Of a DNA stretch of 41,101 nucleotides, positions 5,029-15,478 are shown piece by piece. The notes below the pieces were generated by a model. It was given only the letters and a program-made list of their open reading frames with translations. It did not search any database and had not been told where the DNA came from. The translations under genes were made by a program, and so were the position numbers. Source of the stretch: Patescibacteria group bacterium UBA6130 (GTDB lineage Bacteria; Patescibacteriota; Microgenomatia; UBA12405; UBA6130); contig DIVO01000050.1 in assembly GCA_002428285.1 (NCBI GenBank), positions 9,554 to 50,654 of the forward strand, read 5' to 3'. Position 1 is the stretch's first letter; each line of letters starts with the position of its first letter.

Positions 5029-6831
5029 ATGAATCAGATTGAAGAGATCAAAGCTAAAGTAGATATTGTTGAGATAATTTCCCAAAGTGTAAATTTGAAA
5101 CCTGCCGGAAGAAATTTAAAAGGCTTGTGTCCTTTTCATAGTGAAAAAACTCCGTCATTTATGGTTTCTCCCGAATTGCAAATTTTTAAATGTTTTGGCT
5201 GCGGAAAATCGGGTGATGTGATTACTTTTCTTCAGGAATATGAGCGGATGGATTTTGGCGAGGCTTTGGAGCATTTAGCCCAAATTGCCGGAGTAAAACT
5301 TGAAGGTCAGAAATATTCACCAGACGAGTCAATCAAGAGAAAAATATATGAGATTAATGCTGCGGCAAAGTTTTTTTATCATTTTCTTTTAACCAAACAT
5401 GAGTCAGGCAAAAAAGCTTTAGAATACGCCCATTCGAGGGGTTTAGATCAAAAAATTATCGAAAAGTTTGGACTTGGCTTTTCTCCTCTAAAACCAGATG
5501 CTCTAGCCAATTATTTGATCAAAAAAAAGAATTACACCAAAGATGAGCTACTACAAACTGGCATATTTTTTACTTCGCAATATTCTGGCAGACAAGAGCT
5601 TTTGGACAGATTTTACGGAAGGCTTATTTTTCCCCTATTAGATCATAGAGAAAATATTGTTTCTTTTGCAGGCAGACTTATTCCTGGATATTTCAAAGAT
5701 GAGGATAAACGAGGGAAATATATTAATGGTCCTGATACTCCTGCTTATCACAAATCATATAATTTATATGGACTTTGGTTGACTAAAGAAGAGATAAGAA
5801 AAAAAGATAAGGCCGTATTGGTCGAGGGAGAGCTTGATTTGATTTCGAGCTGGAAGGCAGGAGTGAAAAATATTGTAGCCATTAAGGGAACAGCTTTAAC
5901 CCAAGAGCAGATTCAGTTAATAAAAAGATTTGCATCAAATTTAACCTTTTCTCTAGATGCCGATTTTGCTGGTGATCAGGCGGCTTTGAGGTGTGTGACA
6001 ATGGCTGACAAAGAGGGGTTGGATATGACAGCAGTTGTTTTGCCCAAAGGGGTCAAAGATCCTGACGACTTGGCCAGACTAGACCCAAAAAAATTAATAA
6101 AGGTGGTTGAAAAAGCTATACCTATTTGGGATTTTGTAATCAATAATGCTGTTCAGAGAAATGGGACCGATACCCCTCAGGGAAAAAAGAATGTCCTGAG
6201 GACGGTTTTGCCCATACTAACCCAAATTGATAATCAAGTAGTCAAAGAAGATTATTTAAAAAAACTATCTCAAACTCTTAACACAAGTTCTCAGGCAGTA
6301 ATGTCTGAGGCTCAAAAAACGATTGTATCTGCACCAAAAAAAGCCAAGGCAAATATTTTGAGTGAACCTCAAGAACCACAAGACAAACAAGACATATTGG
6401 AGGAGTATGTTTTGTCTTTGATTATGCTTAGCGGGAAACCTCAAAATTATCTTGAAAATCTTGAATTTGATAATTTTTTGGTTGATAGAATATATAAGGA
6501 ACTGAAAAAGTATTTGAAAAAGAACAAAAAATTTTCGTCATCTGCGTTTTTATCTTTTTTGTCTGAGGAGCTTAAGCCCAAGCTGGAGAAGATGTTCTTT
6601 GTTTGGGGAGATGATGAAGGCACAAACCTAGATAGGGAATTGAAAAAAATTATTACAGAACTGGAAAGGGTGAAATTAAAAAAGAAACTCAATTTATTGT
6701 CTGCCCAGATATCAGAGTCAGAAGAATCGGGAAAGGATATTAAAAAAAACAAAAACAACAAATCTTTGGAAAAACTCCAGGCAGAGTTTTCCGATCTTGC
6801 CGATCAGCTTTCAAGATTGGACGATAATTAA
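5029..6831 (+). CDS. dnaG: DNA primase
   Basis: CHC2 zinc finger CPFHSEKTPSFMVSP...FKCFGCGKSGDVITF and TOPRIM EGELDLIS...DAD. Followed by rpoD, the classical dnaG-rpoD arrangement. Confidence 0.97.
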   Translation: MNQIEEIKAKVDIVEIISQSVNLKPAGRNLKGLCPFHSEKTPSFMVSPELQIFKCFGCGKSGDVITFLQEYERMDFGEALEHLAQIAGVKLEGQKYSPDESIKRKIYEINAAAKFFYHFLLTKHESGKKALEYAHSRGLDQKIIEKFGLGFSPLKPDALANYLIKKKNYTKDELLQTGIFFTSQYSGRQELLDRFYGRLIFPLLDHRENIVSFAGRLIPGYFKDEDKRGKYINGPDTPAYHKSYNLYGLWLTKEEIRKKDKAVLVEGELDLISSWKAGVKNIVAIKGTALTQEQIQLIKRFASNLTFSLDADFAGDQAALRCVTMADKEGLDMTAVVLPKGVKDPDDLARLDPKKLIKVVEKAIPIWDFVINNAVQRNGTDTPQGKKNVLRTVLPILTQIDNQVVKEDYLKKLSQTLNTSSQAVMSEAQKTIVSAPKKAKANILSEPQEPQDKQDILEEYVLSLIMLSGKPQNYLENLEFDNFLVDRIYKELKKYLKKNKKFSSSAFLSFLSEELKPKLEKMFFVWGDDEGTNLDRELKKIITELERVKLKKKLNLLSAQISESEESGKDIKKNKNNKSLEKLQAEFSDLADQLSRLDDN

Positions 6832-6909
6832 AAAAAGAAAGCAATTATCCATATAAATTGCCAGAAAGGATGTTGATTTAAGTTCAATTTGGTGATATTA
6901 TATTTAAAT

Positions 6910-8001
6910 ATGCCCACCCCAGCTATGGAATTTGCCAAAAACAGAAAGTCATTGTTAGCCTTGGCCAAAAAGCAGGGCTTCTTGACTCAGGATGTTATAT
7001 TGGAAAAAATTGTTTCTCCTCATAAATATATTGAAGAATTAGATAAGTTTTATAACGATTTGTTTGAAAAGGGTATTGATGTATTCGAAGGCATAGATGT
7101 TGAGGATGTTAGAAGCGAAGAAGCAGTTTTAGCGGGAGGAAAAATTCCTGCGTTGTCATTGCTTGCCACTTCCACCTCCACCGATCCTGTAAGAATGTAT
7201 TTAAGAGAAATTGGAAAAGTTCCTTTGCTTTCGGGAGAGGAAGAAGTTACTCTTGCTCAAGAGATTGAGAAGGGTTCTGAAAGAGCTAGAGCAAAACTAA
7301 TTGAGTCGAATTTGAGATTGGTTGTTTCTATTGCCAAAAAATATATTGGCAGAGGTTTGACCTTTTTGGATTTAATCCAAGAAGGAAATCAGGGTTTGAT
7401 GAGAGCTGTAGAAAAATTTGATTGGCGAAGAGGTTTTAAATTTTCTACTTATGCCACTTGGTGGATCAGACAAGCCATTACAAGAGCCATTGCAGATCAG
7501 GCAAGAACTATCAGAATCCCCGTGCATATGGTGGAAACCATGAATAGAGTGTTTAAGACTGTTAGACAGTTGGCGCAGGAAAAAGGCAAGGAGCCGAGTG
7601 TGGCGGAGCTTGCAAAAGCCACAGATCTGTCTGAAGAAAAGATTAATGAAATTTTCCGGATTTCCCAAGACACTACTTCTTTGGCTGCTCCTGTAGGCGA
7701 AGAGCAGGATTCTTTTTTGGGAGATTTTATTGAAGATGTCACTTCTCCTTCCCCCTATGAGGAAACTTCAAAAGAGCTTCTTAAGGAGTCCATCACTGAT
7801 GTATTGACAAGTTTGGATGAAAGAGAAGCTAAGGTTTTGTCCTTGAGGTTTGGCTTGGATGGCGAGCCTCCAAAAACATTGGAAGATGTTGGCAAGATTT
7901 TCAATGTCACAAGAGAAAGAATTAGACAAATAGAAGCCAAGGCTTTAAGAAAACTTAGACACCCTTCGAGAAGAAAAAAACTCCAGGATTATTTAGAGTA
8001 A
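6910..8001 (+). CDS. rpoD: RNA polymerase primary sigma factor (sigma-70 family)
   Basis: Region 2 [54 protein letters not shown]. Region 4 [30 protein letters not shown]. The track ORF begins at 6889 with an alternative start, but ATG 6910 is preferred. Confidence 0.96.
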
Positions 8002-8763: not shown

Positions 8764-8991
8764 TTTATTTAAGTATTAATAAATATTTTATATTGTTCCA
8801 ATGTTACTTAACTCTATATTCAGTTACTTAAAGCCTCTTTATATTACTTATTATATCATGCGCTAAAAAAGATTTTGGGTAATAAAAAAAATAAATATTC
8901 ATAAATTTCTAATAAATAACCTAGTTTCTCAGCTTAATCTAAGCTTGGTTTTATGATATAATTTCCTTGTACATTAAAATATTTAATATAT

Positions 8992-9345
8992 TCCTCGGTA
9001 GCTCAGTTGGTAGAGCGCCCGCCTGTCAAGTAGGCAGCCTAAGATAGTAATGTCTTAGTGAATAACTGGGTGAATTCAGGGAAGTCTAAATGGTGATAGT
9101 TTTAACCACATGATAATCCTGAGCCAATCCTTCGCTAAAGCTACGGATTGCAAGCAATCTGTTTGATGTTTGCTAATTCAATGCTTTATTGAAGGCAGGT
9201 GCAGAGACTAGGTGATTACATCTTTAAGCGCCCAGCCCCGTACACTATTTTTTAAATAGTGCGGGGATGATATAGTCCACGCCTTGACGAAAGTCTAGGA
9301 TAAAGTGTAAGCGGTTGGTCCCAGGTTCGAGTCCTGGCCGAGGAG
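8992..9345 (+). tRNA. tRNA-Asn (anticodon GUU) interrupted by a group I intron. Exons are 8992-9026 and 9308-9345.
   Basis: The joined exons give a 73-nt cloverleaf: TCCTCGG-TA-GCTC-AGTTGGTA-GAGC-G-CCCGC-CTGTTAA-GCGGT-TGGTC-CCAGG-TTCGAGT-CCTGG-CCGAGGA-G. The UCCUC.G acceptor plus G73 is close to E. coli tRNA-Asn as I recall it. There is one C27-U43 mismatch. Confidence 0.8.
9027..9307 (+). ncRNA. Group I self-splicing intron (IC3-like, tRNA anticodon-loop type), no internal ORF
   Basis: The core string AAGGCAGGTGCAGAGACTAGGTGATTAC (9192-9219) matches the Azoarcus tRNA intron core GAAGGUGUAGAGACUAGACGGCAC from memory, and CCTGAGCCAATCC matches GCCGAGCCAAGC. P7 candidate is GACTA 9206-9210 / TAGTC 9273-9277. 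P1 pairs exon CUGU 9023-9026 with GCAG 9034-9037, with a U-G wobble at the 5' splice site. G9307 immediately precedes the 3' exon. Peripheral hairpin at 9236-9266. Confidence 0.8.
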
Positions 9346-9465
9346 CAAGTTAGGCGTTACTCGACAATTTGAGTCTAGTAATGCAGCAAAAAGCGGAGTT
9401 GGTTCTGCTTTTACAATGTTCCTACCCTGAATTGGGCACAAAAAAAAGGAGCCCACTAAAATTCA

Positions 9466-9571: not shown

Positions 9572-9666
9572 CAGTATTATTGGATATCAAACAATATCAA
9601 TCATTTTATTTTTCATAGTGCTTTATAAATATCAGGCAATAAAGTATAATTAAACACAATTGATAT

Positions 9667-9858
9667 ATGGCTAAGATTGAAGAACTTTTGACACTGAAAC
9701 AAGCTGCTCAAATACTCAAAGTTAATGAGCAAACTCTCCGACGTTGGGACATAGAAGGCCGATTAAAGGCTGTTAGAATCGGTTCAAGACGTGGTGTTGG
9801 AGACCGACGTTATAGACCTGAAGATATTAAAGATTATCTAAACAGGCAAAAGAAATAA
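9667..9858 (+). CDS. Small helix-turn-helix DNA-binding protein (excisionase/MerR-superfamily type)
   Basis: LLTLKQAAQILKVNEQTLRRWDIEGRLKAVRIG....RYRPEDI fits the excisionase-family HTH pattern. It lies 17 nt upstream of hsdR. Confidence 0.7.
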   Translation: MAKIEELLTLKQAAQILKVNEQTLRRWDIEGRLKAVRIGSRRGVGDRRYRPEDIKDYLNRQKK

Positions 9859-9875
9859 TAGGAAATAAAATAAAT

Positions 9876-12098
9876 ATGACAGATATAAATAATGCCTCAA
9901 AAGAGGCAGACTCAAGGATTATTGTTGACCGATTGCTTCGAGAAGCAGGTTGGAACATTGAAGATAAAAATCAGGTCACTACAGAAGAAGCAACTCAAGA
10001 CGGCAGGGCCGATTATTTACTTTTAGACAGTCGAAGTCGTCCACTAGCCGTTGTCGAAACAAAAAGGTTCAGCAAAGACCCGTACACCGCCAAAGAACAA
10101 GCGGAAACCTATGCTAAAACGCTCCAAGCCCCGTTTATATTTCTTTCCAATGGTGAGGATACCTATTTTTGGGATTATGAGAAAGCGGACGCAAGGCTGG
10201 TTGATTCATTTTTCTCTCGTTTTGATTTGGAAAGAATTTCTACTTTAAGAAAGTATCAAAAGCCTCTCTCAACAATTCCTATTTCAGAGAAATTCTTTTT
10301 TAAGGGAAAAGAAATTACTGTCAGACCCTATCAAAAAGAGGCTTTGCAAACCATAGATAAAGCGTTAGAGGAAAACAAACGTCGTTTATTGGTTGAGATG
10401 GCAACAGGAACAGGTAAAACACTAGTTGCCGCCATGATGATTAAAAGATTATTTCAGGCAGGATTAGTGGAAAGAGTTTTATTTTTGGTTGACAGGATTG
10501 AACTTGCTAACCAAGCCAAAGAAACCTTTGACGACTATCTTTCTGAATATCCCTCAATTGTTTTATATGGTGGAAAGAGGAGTAAAGAAGGACAAATTGT
10601 TATCGGCACACTTCCTACAATTCAATTCCAGATTGACTCATTTACCAGTGGCTATTTTGATTTGGTAGTGACAGATGAATGTCATCGCTCAATTTATAGT
10701 ATTTATCGTTCCTTGCTTCTCCACTTTGACGCTATTCATATTGGTTTAACTGCCACCCCCAGCAATTTAATTGACAGAAACACATATGAGTTTTTTGGCT
10801 GTTGGAATCCATTAAGTAGAAAGGGAGAGCCAACATATATTTATGGAATAAGGCAAGGCATTAATGATGGGTATCTTGCTCCTTACAAGGTTTACCATGC
10901 TAGGTCAAAGATTTCTTTAGAGGGCATCAATTGGCAGGGAGAAGATTACGAACCGCAGGATTTGGAAAGAACCATTTCTGTTGAAGATAGAAACAAATTG
11001 TTTGTTCAGGAATTTAAGGAAAATGAAGAAAAAAGAGATGGCGACCATCCAAGAAAAACCATTGTTTTTGCCATTACTAAAAGACACGCTTCCCAACTAA
11101 CTAGATTTTTCAATGAAATGTATCCTGAATACAAAGGTAAATATGCCGAGATTATTACCACTGATACTTTTGACCCGCAAAGAGCTATTAAACGCTTTAA
11201 AAAGGAATCTTTGCCAGTTATAGCGGTTTCTGTGGCTATGCTTGATACGGGATTTGACTATCCGGCAGTTGAAAACCTGATGATGTGTCGGCCTACCCGT
11301 TCACCTATCTTTTATCAGCAAATGAGGGGTCGAGGTTCTCGTCTTTGCCCTGAAGTGGGTAAAAATGAATATCTTATTTATGACTTTGTTGGCAATGCAG
11401 AATACTTTAATGATGAAGGCTATAACCCCTTTGAACAGAAGAAAACAGCTATCAGAATGCCAGTAGAAGAAGTCGAAAAAGAGGAGGTTGTTGAGGAACA
11501 AATACCAGAACATATAATTAGGCAGTTTGTCACCATTCCCCTAGGTCAAGCTCACGATGAATGGGTGGAGAGAAAATATATCGAATTTGGACCAGACGGA
11601 GAAAAAGTTGATGCCAGAGAATATAAAGATAAATTTGCCGAAGAAGTAAAGAAGCTAGCTGATACCAACGAAATTATTATTAAACTCAAACAGCTACAAG
11701 ATGTTACTGATGAGGAAGTACAAGAACTGGGCGAACTTCTCAACCACCCCGAATTCTTTTTTAACGAAAACAATTTAAGACAAGCCTATGACCAACCAAC
11801 AGGCAACTTGGTTGATTTTGTTAAATCAGCTCTCGGAATGCACAAGTTCCCGACCAAAGAAGACAGAGTGAGTCAAGCCTTTGACGCCTGGATAATTCAA
11901 AAGAACTTTGCTCCTGAACAAGTCAGAATTTTAAGAATGCTCAAGAATCAATTCTTAGCAGGGAGTAAAGCAGATATTCAAGATTTCAGCCGACCCCCCA
12001 TCTCACAATATGGTGGTTTGCAATATGCCGTAAAAGTATTCGGTGAAGATGGCTTAAAGCAAGTGGTTACCGATTTACAGCAAGGAGTATTTATATGA
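9876..12098 (+). CDS. hsdR: Type I restriction enzyme, R subunit (EcoEI/type IB-like short form)
   Basis: N-terminal PD-(D/E)xK (GRADYLLLD...LAVVETKR). SF2 helicase motifs MATGTGKT, DECHR, GLTATP and QMRGRGSR. A C-terminal helical domain resembles the EcoEI R C-terminal domain. It overlaps the hsdM start by 4 nt. Confidence 0.93.
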   Translation: MTDINNASKEADSRIIVDRLLREAGWNIEDKNQVTTEEATQDGRADYLLLDSRSRPLAVVETKRFSKDPYTAKEQAETYAKTLQAPFIFLSNGEDTYFWDYEKADARLVDSFFSRFDLERISTLRKYQKPLSTIPISEKFFFKGKEITVRPYQKEALQTIDKALEENKRRLLVEMATGTGKTLVAAMMIKRLFQAGLVERVLFLVDRIELANQAKETFDDYLSEYPSIVLYGGKRSKEGQIVIGTLPTIQFQIDSFTSGYFDLVVTDECHRSIYSIYRSLLLHFDAIHIGLTATPSNLIDRNTYEFFGCWNPLSRKGEPTYIYGIRQGINDGYLAPYKVYHARSKISLEGINWQGEDYEPQDLERTISVEDRNKLFVQEFKENEEKRDGDHPRKTIVFAITKRHASQLTRFFNEMYPEYKGKYAEIITTDTFDPQRAIKRFKKESLPVIAVSVAMLDTGFDYPAVENLMMCRPTRSPIFYQQMRGRGSRLCPEVGKNEYLIYDFVGNAEYFNDEGYNPFEQKKTAIRMPVEEVEKEEVVEEQIPEHIIRQFVTIPLGQAHDEWVERKYIEFGPDGEKVDAREYKDKFAEEVKKLADTNEIIIKLKQLQDVTDEEVQELGELLNHPEFFFNENNLRQAYDQPTGNLVDFVKSALGMHKFPTKEDRVSQAFDAWIIQKNFAPEQVRILRMLKNQFLAGSKADIQDFSRPPISQYGGLQYAVKVFGEDGLKQVVTDLQQGVFI

Positions 12099-13609
12099 CC
12101 AAGATTCCAAAACAAGAACTCCAGTCAACCATAGACCAGATTTGCAATAAATTGTGGGCAGCGGGTTTGACTAACCCTATTACTTACATCGAACAAATAT
12201 CTTATTTCTTTTTTCTTAAGATGCTTGAGGAATGGGATAACCAGAAAGCTAAAGAAGCGAAACTTATCGGACACACTAACGGGAATAAGTCCATGTTTGA
12301 GGGAGAAAATGAAAAATATCGCTGGAGCCAATGGACACATATTGCCGACAATACCCAGATGTATAAATTCGTTCGTGATGAAGTGTTTCCTTTTATGGCA
12401 AACCTTCCAGGAACCAATGAGGCAGTTAGGCGGTTCTTTGATGATGCCAGATTTCAAATTCCTGATGGAGTAGTCCTTCGGGATGTTGTCGATAAACTTC
12501 GAGACGTTTCCTTTATCGAGCTCGATGCTGATGTTAAAGGTGATTTATACGAATATCTTCTAAACCAACTCACAACTTCAGGCAAAGCAGGACAATTTAG
12601 AACTCCAAGGCATATTATTCGAACCATTGTTCAACTAACCAATCCTCAAATTGGTGAAACAATATTAGACCCCGCCAGCGGTACAGGTGGTTTTCTCTTA
12701 GGAGCTTACGAATGGATAAAACTTTGCAATTCAGACCCTAAAAATATTGAGGAATTAGTTAATGGTGGTGGACAGATATCCAAAAAAGGCCCAGGAGACA
12801 AGCTCAATCCTTCACAGTGGCAATTCCTACAAAGTGGAACGTTTTACGGCTTTGACGTTGACGCTGCAATGGTCAAGATTGCCACTATGAACCTTATTCT
12901 TCATGGTTTGGATAAATCGCAAGTAATAAGGCGTGATGCAGTGGCTGGTAGTCCTGATGAGTGGGAAGACCGAGAATATGACGTGATTATCTCCAATCCT
13001 CCATTTGCGGGAACTATTAATAAGGAAAGGGTTAGAAAATATTTACCTGTTCAATCAACTGATACTACAACCTTGTTTTTAGGATTGATGATTGATGCCC
13101 TAAGACCAGGCGGAAGAGCAGGGGTAATTGTCAACGAAGGAATCCTTTTTAACCGAAACAAGGCCTCACAGGAAGTAAGACGTTATCTCATGGATAAAAG
13201 AAATCTTGTAGCAGTTGTTTCTTTGCCTGGTGGTATTTTTCAACCTTATTCTGGAGTTAAAACAAGTGTTTTGTTCTTTAACAATGATGGCAAGAAAACA
13301 GAAAAGGTATGGTTTTATGAAGTTCAACAAGATGGGTTTGGACTTGCAACTCAAAGAAAACCAACTCCAGATAAAAATGACCTTCCAGACTTGATTGAGA
13401 AGTGGTCAACCAAACCAGAATCTGCAAACAGTTGGTTTGCAACCAAAGCACAGATAGAAGAGAACAACTTTATTATTTCCTCATCTGCATATAAGCCGTT
13501 AACGAAGGATGACTTTGTCTACCGAGACCCAAAAGAGATTTTCAAAGAAATTCAGGAATTAAATAAACAATCCCAAGAGCAATTAAAGAAAATTGAAAAA
13601 TTTATATGA
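12095..13609 (+). CDS. hsdM: Type I restriction-modification system, N6-adenine DNA methyltransferase subunit
   Basis: Motif I DPASGTGGFL, motif IV ISNPPFAG, and an HsdM N-terminal helical domain. Confidence 0.95.
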   Translation: MTKIPKQELQSTIDQICNKLWAAGLTNPITYIEQISYFFFLKMLEEWDNQKAKEAKLIGHTNGNKSMFEGENEKYRWSQWTHIADNTQMYKFVRDEVFPFMANLPGTNEAVRRFFDDARFQIPDGVVLRDVVDKLRDVSFIELDADVKGDLYEYLLNQLTTSGKAGQFRTPRHIIRTIVQLTNPQIGETILDPASGTGGFLLGAYEWIKLCNSDPKNIEELVNGGGQISKKGPGDKLNPSQWQFLQSGTFYGFDVDAAMVKIATMNLILHGLDKSQVIRRDAVAGSPDEWEDREYDVIISNPPFAGTINKERVRKYLPVQSTDTTTLFLGLMIDALRPGGRAGVIVNEGILFNRNKASQEVRRYLMDKRNLVAVVSLPGGIFQPYSGVKTSVLFFNNDGKKTEKVWFYEVQQDGFGLATQRKPTPDKNDLPDLIEKWSTKPESANSWFATKAQIEENNFIISSSAYKPLTKDDFVYRDPKEIFKEIQELNKQSQEQLKKIEKFI

Positions 13610-14310
13610 ACTATAAATTTATTGCAACCCAGTTTGGAGAGGCAGTTAAATACGATACAACCGTTAACGAAGTAAGCAGAACTTTCAATGCCCTCACCAA
13701 CCTCAAAAGGAAAGATTATGTCAATGATGCAATTACTTCAGCTCGTTCAGGATTGATTTATTCATGGGTGATGACTATTGGCGACTCAAACCTTGAAGAA
13801 TCAGACAAATGTGAACTTGTAAGGCAGGCAATAAATACAATAGTGATAAACGACAAGGTAAAAGAAAAGCTGTTGGGATTACTGGGGACATCGAGATGTT
13901 TACCTAAAACGAATTCGTCTAGTTATGTGAACTCAAGCAGGCTAGATGAAATTAAAGCGTTGAATTGTAAAAATTTTGATTTATCTAGGTTGATAAAACT
14001 TTGTGACGAGTTAAATATGTCTTTCGAAAATAAGTGCTATTTTTCTGTTGCAATACTGGTTCGGTCATTATTAGACCATGTTCCGCCAATCTTTGGAGTA
14101 GGCTCATTTACGGAACTGGCCAATAACTATCAAGGGACAAGGAGTTTCAAGGCACAAATGCAGCATCTTGAATTGTCATCTCGGAAAATAGCCGACTCAT
14201 ATTTACATACACAAATTAGAAATAAGGAATCGTTGCCCAACTCAACGCAAGTGGATTTTTCAAACGACCTAGATGTGTTGTTAGGCGAGGTGTACCGATT
14301 ATTAAAATAA
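13606..14310 (+). CDS. Uncharacterised 234-aa protein inserted between hsdM and hsdS
   Basis: ATGA overlap with the hsdM stop and a 1-nt gap to the hsdS start. No catalytic motif recognised. The C-terminal half is helical (..LVRSLLDHVPPIFG...SSRKIADSYLHTQIR..). Confidence 0.7.
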   Translation: MNYKFIATQFGEAVKYDTTVNEVSRTFNALTNLKRKDYVNDAITSARSGLIYSWVMTIGDSNLEESDKCELVRQAINTIVINDKVKEKLLGLLGTSRCLPKTNSSSYVNSSRLDEIKALNCKNFDLSRLIKLCDELNMSFENKCYFSVAILVRSLLDHVPPIFGVGSFTELANNYQGTRSFKAQMQHLELSSRKIADSYLHTQIRNKESLPNSTQVDFSNDLDVLLGEVYRLLK

Positions 14311-14311
14311 T

Positions 14312-15478
14312 ATGAATAACTGGCAAGCTAAGAAACTTGGAGATATAACAGTAATAAATGGTGGAGGAACACCTCCTACAAGCCATGCTGAATATTTTAA
14401 TGGCGATGTGCCTTGGTTTACTCCTTCCGAGATTACCTCTGGAACAGTTTCCGTTTTAACTAATAGTCAAAGGCAAATTACAGAAGAAGCAACGAAGTTC
14501 TCTAAGGTAGCCGAGCAAGGAACGGTTTTATTGTCTAGTAGGGCAACTATAGGAAATATTGGAATAGTAGCTAATCGTTCAACTTACAATCAAGGAATTA
14601 AAGGAATAACCCCAAAAGAAGATTTAAACTCATGGTTTCTTGCTTACTGGCTATTAGCAAACAAAAAAGGATTAGAAAAATCATCATTTGGAACAACATT
14701 TAAAGAATTAAGCACAACAGCTCTAAAAAAATTTGATATTACAATTCCGCCTATTTCTGTTCAACAAAAAATTGTTGAGCGTTTAGACTCAATCAGAAAA
14801 TTGCAGGAATTAAACCAAAAAGAAATTGAAAAGGCAGAAGAATTATTTGACTCATTATTGAGTGTTAAATTTTACCCCAATAAAGCATATAAAAGGTTAA
14901 ATTTTGAAGATGTCGTTACTTTTAAGAGGGGGCCTTTTGGTGGTTCACTAAAGAAAGAAATATTTGTCTCAGACGGTTTTAGAGTTTATGAGCAAAGAAA
15001 TGCGATATATGATGATTTTACTAACTGTAGGTATTTTATTACTGAAGAGAAATATAAAGAGATGATTGGTTTTGCTGTTAAAACTGGGGATTTAATAGTT
15101 AGTTGCTCGGGGACAATTGGAAAGGTTGCCTTGGTACCGAATAAAGTTTCTCCAGGAATCATAAATCAAGCCTTACTAAAAATTACTCCAAAAATAGATA
15201 TTGTCCTCAGCGAATACCTCAAATATTTAATTCAGAGTAGAGATATGCAGATTAAAATGTTTGGAAATGCCCGTGGTTCTTCTATTAAAAATATCGTTTC
15301 GATTAAAGAGATAAAAAAACTTGTTTTATCTCTACCATCTATTAAAGAACAACAGCAAATTGTTAAGGAGTTAGATTTTGTAGCAAATATACATGAGACT
15401 AAAATTCTATTAAAGAAATCAATATCGCAAATCTATGAAAATAGCCTCATTAAGGCAATGAAAGGAGAAATGGTTTAA
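14312..15478 (+). CDS. hsdS: Type I restriction-modification system, specificity subunit
   Basis: 388 aa with two target-recognition halves. Each begins with a ..G..PP../..GPFGG.. type segment and ends in a conserved helical spacer (PPISVQQKIVERLDSI... and LPSIKEQQQIVKELDF...). Its position follows hsdM. Confidence 0.9.
   Translation: MNNWQAKKLGDITVINGGGTPPTSHAEYFNGDVPWFTPSEITSGTVSVLTNSQRQITEEATKFSKVAEQGTVLLSSRATIGNIGIVANRSTYNQGIKGITPKEDLNSWFLAYWLLANKKGLEKSSFGTTFKELSTTALKKFDITIPPISVQQKIVERLDSIRKLQELNQKEIEKAEELFDSLLSVKFYPNKAYKRLNFEDVVTFKRGPFGGSLKKEIFVSDGFRVYEQRNAIYDDFTNCRYFITEEKYKEMIGFAVKTGDLIVSCSGTIGKVALVPNKVSPGIINQALLKITPKIDIVLSEYLKYLIQSRDMQIKMFGNARGSSIKNIVSIKEIKKLVLSLPSIKEQQQIVKELDFVANIHETKILLKKSISQIYENSLIKAMKGEMV

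Follow-up and report, generated by a model that had tools for sequence, protein, structure and literature searches.

A tRNA-Asn(GUU) gene split within its anticodon by a predicted group I intron of class Asn.4Ug

Very probably, the asparagine tRNA gene described here is a tRNA-Asn(GUU) in which a group I intron of 281 nt, of the type found in bacterial tRNAs, stands between U35 and U36; the intron belongs to the class Asn.4Ug and is predicted to be removed at the boundaries set out below. What is new, as judged from comparative sequence analysis, is the comparative proof of the junction and the covariation support for the whole predicted fold, together with the wide spread of the class among uncultivated phyla, an intron-less allele at the rpoD-tRNA locus and a homologue that bears an HNH endonuclease frame.

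The interrupted gene and its boundaries

The gene lies at positions 8992-9345 of the plus strand of the window, by which we mean the whole 41,101-nt stretch of DNA analysed (G+C content 35.6%), and reads TCCTCGGTAGCTCAGTTGGTAGAGCGCCCGCCTGT, then 281 nt, then TAAGCGGTTGGTCCCAGGTTCGAGTCCTGGCCGAGGAG. A sequence-only reading had divided it into exons of 35 and 38 nt, with 281 nt between anticodon positions 35 and 36, and these coordinates proved exact when ARAGORN was run on the joined exons. The features are as follows.

8954-8962, plus strand: candidate extended -10 element TGATATAAT, some 30 nt ahead of the first tRNA nucleotide, read from the sequence
8992-9026, plus strand: 5' exon, with the acceptor 5' strand, the D arm, the anticodon-stem 5' strand and C32 U33 G34 U35; ends CCUGU; placed by ARAGORN on the joined exons
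9027-9307, plus strand: group I intron, 281 nt; placed by RF00028 and by covariation on 75 homologues
9307, plus strand: terminal intron guanosine (omega G), directly before the 3' splice site
9308-9345, plus strand: 3' exon, starting UAAGCGG, with U36 A37 A38, the anticodon-stem 3' strand, the variable loop, the T arm, the acceptor 3' strand and the discriminator G9345

Both identities proposed for the locus from the sequence stand. The asparagine host rests on the ARAGORN call, on the closest E. coli gene and on an intron-less relative, and the group I assignment on the Rfam match, on covariation and on the homologues. ARAGORN was given 8992-9026 joined to 9308-9345, 73 nt in all, together with one further base; it returned tRNA-Asn(GUU), in a regular cloverleaf whose acceptor stem has all seven pairs intact and whose discriminator is G. 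The predicted 73-nt ligated product would read CCUGUUAAGCGG. Among 5,426 E. coli genomes, the best match to the joined exons is an annotated tRNA-Asn, with 79.5% identity over 73/73 nt. Pairing is perfect in the acceptor, D and T stems of the exons, and the anticodon stem has one C27×U43 mismatch. CCA is not encoded by the 3' exon, and CAAG comes after the gene.

The Rfam model Intron_gpI (RF00028) matches 9017-9299 on the plus strand with 71.6 bits and an E-value of 2.2e-16, over the whole model (1-253 of 253) and above the curated gathering score of 50 bits. The folding energy of the pre-tRNA is -123.2 kcal/mol (z = -5.1 against shuffled controls), and in its minimum-energy structure the tRNA stems (acceptor, D and T) and the intron helices P1, P2, P4, P5, P6, P8 and P9 all appear. 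The 281 nt hold no ORF, the longest stop-free stretch being 33 codons, and the window intron thus lacks the homing endonuclease that marks a mobile group I intron. ARAGORN finds no second tRNA-Asn within the window, as had been noted from the sequence. Over the region of TGATATAAT, a consensus promoter scan gives only a weak, overlapping promoter-like match.

Predicted fold of the intron

The helices can be assigned element by element, all on the plus strand:

9023-9027 with 9033-9037: P1, with C9023-G9037, U9024-A9036, G9025-C9035, U9026·G9034 and the extension pair C9027-G9033; loop AAGUA
9039-9046 with 9051-9058: P2, 8 bp, with a GUAA tetraloop at 9047-9050; 6 pairs changed on both sides; the minimum-energy fold agrees
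9066-9072 (CUGGGUG) with 9229-9235 (CGCCCAG): P3; 92% of alignment cells paired, 4 compensatory pairs
9076-9081 with 9117-9122: P4, enclosing P5; from the alignment helices
9084-9086 with 9112-9114: P5, plus a P5 extension; from the alignment helices
9123-9124 with 9199-9200, and 9129-9133 with 9191-9195: P6; from the alignment helices
9134-9190: P6 extension, 57 nt, lineage-specific, a 59-nt insert in the Rfam alignment
9206-9210 (GACUA) with 9273-9277 (UAGUC): P7, the guanosine-binding helix; 100% paired, nearly invariant
9211-9222: hairpin GGUGAUUACAUC in the joiner from P7 to P3; an insert in the Rfam alignment, with longer inserts in many homologues
9236-9240 with 9262-9266: P8, with an extension of 9243-9250 with 9254-9261; 4 compensatory pairs; seen in the minimum-energy fold
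9282-9288 with 9293-9299: P9, with a GAAA tetraloop at 9289-9292; 6 compensatory pairs, one U×U mismatch

When P1 to P9 and the tRNA stems are drawn on the window sequence, all positions pair save C27×U43 and the one U×U in P9. The core helices P3 to P9, including the P3/P7 pseudoknot, are 82-100% paired in the alignment described below, with compensatory changes in every helix. The 3' strand of P7 lies inside the conserved GAUAUAGUCC, and the P5 region holds UCUAAA...CAUGA, a variant of the CCUAAG...UAUGG motif carried by most homologues, which we read from the sequence as a putative tetraloop-receptor motif. The P10 pairing of the 3' exon with the guide is weak.

The wobble at the 5' splice site is U9026·G9034, in which G9034 belongs to the GCAG guide (9034-9037). 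A wobble here had also been proposed from the sequence, and that part of the proposal holds; the register then chosen, GUAGGC with U9026·G9030, can form in the window sequence and leaves the splice site after U9026, but the conserved register is that of GCAG. All four CUGU/GCAG pairs of P1 are invariant in 75/75 aligned sequences, and the extension pair, formed by intron position +1 and the base before GCAG, covaries (CG 25, AU 23, GC 16, GU 2).

Inside the P6 extension, positions 9143-9172 hold a hairpin with a T-rich run after it, an arrangement like that of a terminator. Termination there would shorten the pre-tRNA; more likely, the hairpin is simply a peripheral helix.

Homologues and covariation

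A pattern scan of 185,579 species-representative genomes, in which a tRNA D arm had to be followed by CTGT, by a base other than T and by a GYAG guide, gave at least 119 loci. About 20 of the matches listed are tRNA-His genes or archaeal tRNAs with protein-spliced introns, and all remaining matches listed have the UCC… acceptor of tRNA-Asn. Complete intron-split tRNA-Asn genes occur in at least 78 species, with introns of 184-563 nt. Among the matches listed, in 78/78 homologues the 5' exon ends CTGT, the intron closes with a G (the counterpart of G9307, whose place directly before the 3' exon had been noted beforehand) and the 3' exon starts TAA and runs on into the anticodon stem, T arm, acceptor and G discriminator. 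At the Asn site, the gathering score of RF00028 is reached in 15/19 sampled loci, the other 4/19 falling below it, and the window intron is 64-68% identical to other members of the family.

The hosts, among the matches listed, include within the Patescibacteria the Saccharibacteria, Paceibacterota and others, and beyond them Nitrospira/Nitrospirota, Binatia, Rokubacteria/Methylomirabilota, Planctomycetes/Planctomycetota, Omnitrophota, Elusimicrobia, the cyanobacterium Floridaenema, a Bdellovibrio relative and bins labelled gamma- or deltaproteobacteria. Searches of plasmid and phage collections with the pre-tRNA gave no match.

Covariation was counted on a MAFFT alignment of 75 genes, with the pairs drawn from the window sequence. 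Standard pairs form in 93.5% of alignment cells, a share that falls to 37-46% once each partner is slid by 1-3 columns and to 74.6% in shuffled alignments, none of which (0/500) reaches 93.5%; 51 of the 74 pairs have changed on both sides. All 5 pairs of the anticodon stem, whose strands stand on opposite sides of the intron, covary, which argues that the joined product is under selection as a tRNA. Drawn as it is from sequence comparison, this covariation gives the strongest indirect indication of accurate removal of the intron.

Several loci met in the scan deserve a record of their own. In Candidatus Vecturithrix (L116:4749-5425, minus strand), two tandem tRNA-Asn genes about 350 nt apart are both interrupted by nearly identical group I introns (83.1 and 80.8 bits). 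A Saccharibacteria contig (L092:2257-2560) holds a tRNA-Asn 5' exon and a complete-looking intron core, with no recognisable tRNA 3' half after the intron, and could be a pseudogene, a rearrangement or a misassembly. At L010:4652-4940 (plus strand), a second group I intron (RF00028, 56.4 bits) lies about 1.5 kb from the intron-split tRNA-Asn; its host is an initiator-like tRNA, CGCGGGA…/…TCCCGCAA, with a C1×A72 mismatch, and it is spliced after U33 (GGCT/CAAAATGG…AGATCG/CATAATCTC, slashes marking the junctions), which is the classical fMet.2Ug type.

Alternative readings of the locus

The sequence GU stands at both ends of the intron (…CCU GU/C… and …AAAG UG/UAAG…), so a cut two bases upstream (9024/9306) removes the same 281 nt and yields the loop CUUGUAA, that is, a tRNA-Thr(UGU). 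This outcome, which had been flagged beforehand as one that would overturn the asparagine assignment, is what the ARAGORN intron search reports on the raw window (tRNA-Thr(tgt) with a 281-nt intron); further points for it are that U9024 precedes the cut and that G9305 could act as terminal G. The geometry of P1 speaks against it. Group I 5' splice sites follow a U paired with G in P1, whereas U9024 faces A9036, or A9032 in the other register, and the threonine junction would therefore lack a splice-site wobble in either. The homologues point the same way: the slide needs GTG before TAA, which only 35 of the 78 have (ATG 12, CTG 11, TTG 9 and others, the last base always being G), whereas the asparagine junction is possible in 78/78, all counts being among the matches listed. 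Nor does a threonine identity sit well with a tRNA body that has U1-A72, a G discriminator and tRNA-Asn as its best E. coli match, or with the intron-less relative L123, which reads CTGTTAAGCGG across the junction. On P1 geometry, homologues and relative together we reject the tRNA-Thr(UGU) junction, which we consider very improbable.

Somewhat less remote, and still unlikely, is that the intron is a decaying relic which splices poorly or not at all, asparagine codons being read by another, intron-less tRNA-Asn elsewhere. The mismatches of the window copy, in the anticodon stem (C27×U43) and in P9, would fit such decay, as would the homologue L092 with its 5' exon and intron and no 3' exon. 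Yet the Rfam model is matched over its full length by the catalytic core, no mispair occurs in the acceptor, D or T stem, and neither U-1 nor the GCAG guide nor the terminal G has been lost; the exons are one base away from those of an intron-less relative whose RpoD is only 69% identical, and no intron-less tRNA-Asn lies near any intron-containing copy in the loci examined. That the group I match could be a chance or compositional artefact, and the tRNA halves unrelated fragments, has nothing in its favour except the low G+C of the window (35.6%); the RF00028 E-value of 2e-16 and the folding z-score of -5.1 oppose it, and the Rfam match, the at least 78 homologues with the same exon-intron architecture and their strong covariation refute it, leaving it the least credible of the three. 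We therefore keep to a tRNA-Asn(GUU) with an intron between U35 and U36.

Relation to described tRNA introns

In the preprint by Williams (2020; bioRxiv 10.1101/2020.01.27.920355), 80,413 bacterial genomes are scanned and four classical classes of tRNA intron, Leu.3Ug, Arg.5Ug, fMet.2Ug and Ile2.5Ug, all IC3, are expanded to 21; the classical sites given there are 34/35 in Leu(UAA), 33/34 in fMet(CAU) and 36/37 in Ile2(CAU) and Arg(CCU). The seed alignment of the preprint contains Pam37.Asn.4Ug, a tRNA-Asn whose splice site follows nucleotide four of the anticodon loop, with U at position -1 and G as the last intron base. The suggestion that the window gene would extend the list of bacterial tRNA intron hosts therefore falls, this class being already in that alignment. 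On every defining feature examined (CUGU/...G/UAA, U at -1, terminal G, joined exons that give a tRNA-Asn GUU), the predicted gene is a member of the described class Asn.4Ug.

The Pam37 seed shares with the window the host (Asn, GUU), the site 35/36, U at -1, the terminal G and the core strings GCAGAGACUA, GAUAGUCC and AGCGCCC. It is 93% identical to the Floridaenema loci L011 and L095, both of which can be aligned to the window along their whole length. Its identity to the window itself is 65%, within the range that other family members show. The cyanobacterial seed has an extra hairpin in the P1 loop/P2 region, which the window lacks, whereas the window intron has the 57-nt P6 extension and a low-G+C uncultured host. 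Core strings of the group I type had been recognised from the sequence: GCAGAGACUAG at 9201-9211 and UGAGCCAA at 9120-9127 are indeed present in the intron, and close forms stand in the seed alignment (GCAGAGACUA, and CCUGA-GCC-AAG in a Leu.3Ug seed). Tyr.4Ug, Asp.4Ug and Lys.4Ug, also in the preprint, share the loop position, after the fourth nucleotide, and in Tyr.4Ug and Asp.4Ug the 5' exon likewise ends CUGU and is paired to a GCAG guide; these classes differ in their tRNA bodies and in nucleotide 36.

For the classical bacterial tRNA introns, the tRNA-Ile intron of Azoarcus serves as structural model (PMC13168695). Like them, the window intron is compact, has no ORF and lies in the anticodon loop, uses anticodon-loop nucleotides in P1, has P2 and P9 capped by GNRA tetraloops, bears in P5 a receptor motif of the CCUAAG/UAUGG type, resembles them in the sequences of P4/P6 and P7, and has exons presumably held by the anticodon stem. 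It differs in its host, tRNA-Asn, in the phosphodiester 35/36 and in the insert in the P7-to-P3 joiner. The GNRA loops and the receptor-like motif fit subgroup IC3, as a resemblance only; the joiner insert is atypical, and in the Azoarcus intron this joiner is short.

Elsewhere in the literature, Lui et al. (2021) remark only that some tRNAs of CPR (Patescibacteria) genomes had group I introns (PMC8172020), and the tRNAscan-SE 2.0 paper mentions the fMet and Ile2 cases only (PMC8450103). Full-text searches for asparagine or for the taxa concerned brought up no paper that describes a group I intron in tRNA-Asn. So far as the literature searched shows, the class is known only computationally, and from that one preprint.

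A model for splicing

Most likely, the predicted mechanism is that of an ordinary group I intron. Transcription would probably start from TGATATAAT, about 30 nt upstream of the tRNA, if this element acts as a promoter, and the intron would fold into its P1-P9 core. The GCAG guide (9034-9037) would pair with C32-U35 of the anticodon loop, with U9026·G9034 marking the 5' splice site, and a free (exogenous) guanosine bound in P7 would attack after U9026. G9307 would then occupy the same P7 site and the 3'-OH of U35 attack after G9307, which would join ...CUGU to UAAGCGG..., restore the loop CUGUUAA and the anticodon GUU, and release the intron. The anticodon stem, to which both exons contribute, presumably holds the exons together, P10 being weak; in the Anabaena tRNA-Leu intron, according to a citing paper, the exons are likewise held by the anticodon stem (Zaug et al. 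1993, cited in PMC3984707). To complete the tRNA, processing by RNase P, trimming of the 3' end and addition of CCA would be needed as well, because the gene is followed by CAAG and not by CCA. That the intron is catalytic, and splices without protein, we infer from its sequence.

An intron-less allele and mobility

Intron-less tRNA-Asn genes identical in 72/73 positions to the joined exons of the window occur at L123:3250-3323 (minus strand) and L124:9-81 (plus strand). The former, on a metagenome contig, reads CCTGTTAAGCGG, with CTGTTAAGCGG at the junction, and stands directly downstream of rpoD, as in the window; TGATATAAT recurs about 30 nt upstream of it. Over 210 aa the two RpoD proteins are 69% identical, and exons that differ by a single base between such relatives imply strong constraint; the intron-less allele at the same rpoD-tRNA locus implies that the intron was gained or lost between related lineages.

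A Parcubacteria bin (L071:1591-2153) carries a tRNA-Asn intron of 563 nt with a 118-aa HNH endonuclease ORF in the P1 loop (PF01844, 25.2 bits against a cut-off of 21.4), the end of which runs into the guide sequence and P2. This frame suggests, at the level of sequence, that the class can move by homing. In L124, a direct repeat of about 30 nt, GAGCCAGTTGG[A/C]ACTTA[A/T]TATACCCAA (71-105 and 829-858), has its first copy starting within the 3' end of the intron-less tRNA-Asn and its second about 750 nt further downstream; the two copies resemble attachment sites left by a small element that has integrated there.

Consequences for annotation and translation

By default, ARAGORN and the Rfam tRNA model list only tRNA-Arg(CCG) at 195-267 and tRNA-Ser(CGA) at 826-912 in the window; the tRNA-Asn (8992-9346) is missed by both and labelled tRNA-Thr(tgt) by ARAGORN -i. 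Such missing or mislabelling of intron-split tRNA-Asn genes probably affects many genomes. Since standard tRNA finders miss the gene, the genomes that carry it look as if they had no tRNA-Asn, an apparent absence that distorts completeness checks and codon-reading inferences for many uncultured phyla.

Were the gene the sole tRNA-Asn copy, an RNA enzyme would be essential for translation in the organisms that carry it. A wider reading, which we hold tentatively and rate a little short of probable, is that the interrupted gene is the only tRNA-Asn of a small-genome, probably Patescibacteria-like lineage, in which all AAU/AAC codons would depend on ribozyme self-splicing, and that Asn.4Ug has been gained or lost between relatives and spread by endonuclease homing. 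If this is true, few essential ribozyme insertions of uncultivated bacteria would match Asn.4Ug in phylogenetic breadth, and the class would be a systematic cause of the 'missing tRNA-Asn' in their genome annotations. As a large, covarying and sometimes endonuclease-bearing family, it offers good material for the study of how tRNA introns spread.

Surroundings of the gene

No repeat of the tRNA 3' end, of the kind that bounds a genomic island, occurs elsewhere in the window. The region directly 3' of the tRNA (9600-15478), which holds a small ORF of the HTH_17 (excisionase-like) kind and a complete type I restriction-modification system, resembles an island beside a tRNA gene. The restriction-modification genes are:

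9876-12098: hsdR
12095-13609: hsdM
14312-15478: hsdS

The window also holds a DUF5667 neighbour, which, together with the G+C of 35.6% and the metagenomic origin, suggests a Patescibacteria-like host; neither 16S nor ribosomal markers are present in the window. Upstream of the tRNA-Asn is a dnaG-rpoD pair (5029-8001), with a 183-aa ORF on the opposite strand between rpoD and the tRNA; in E. coli a tRNA gene likewise stands just after rpoD.
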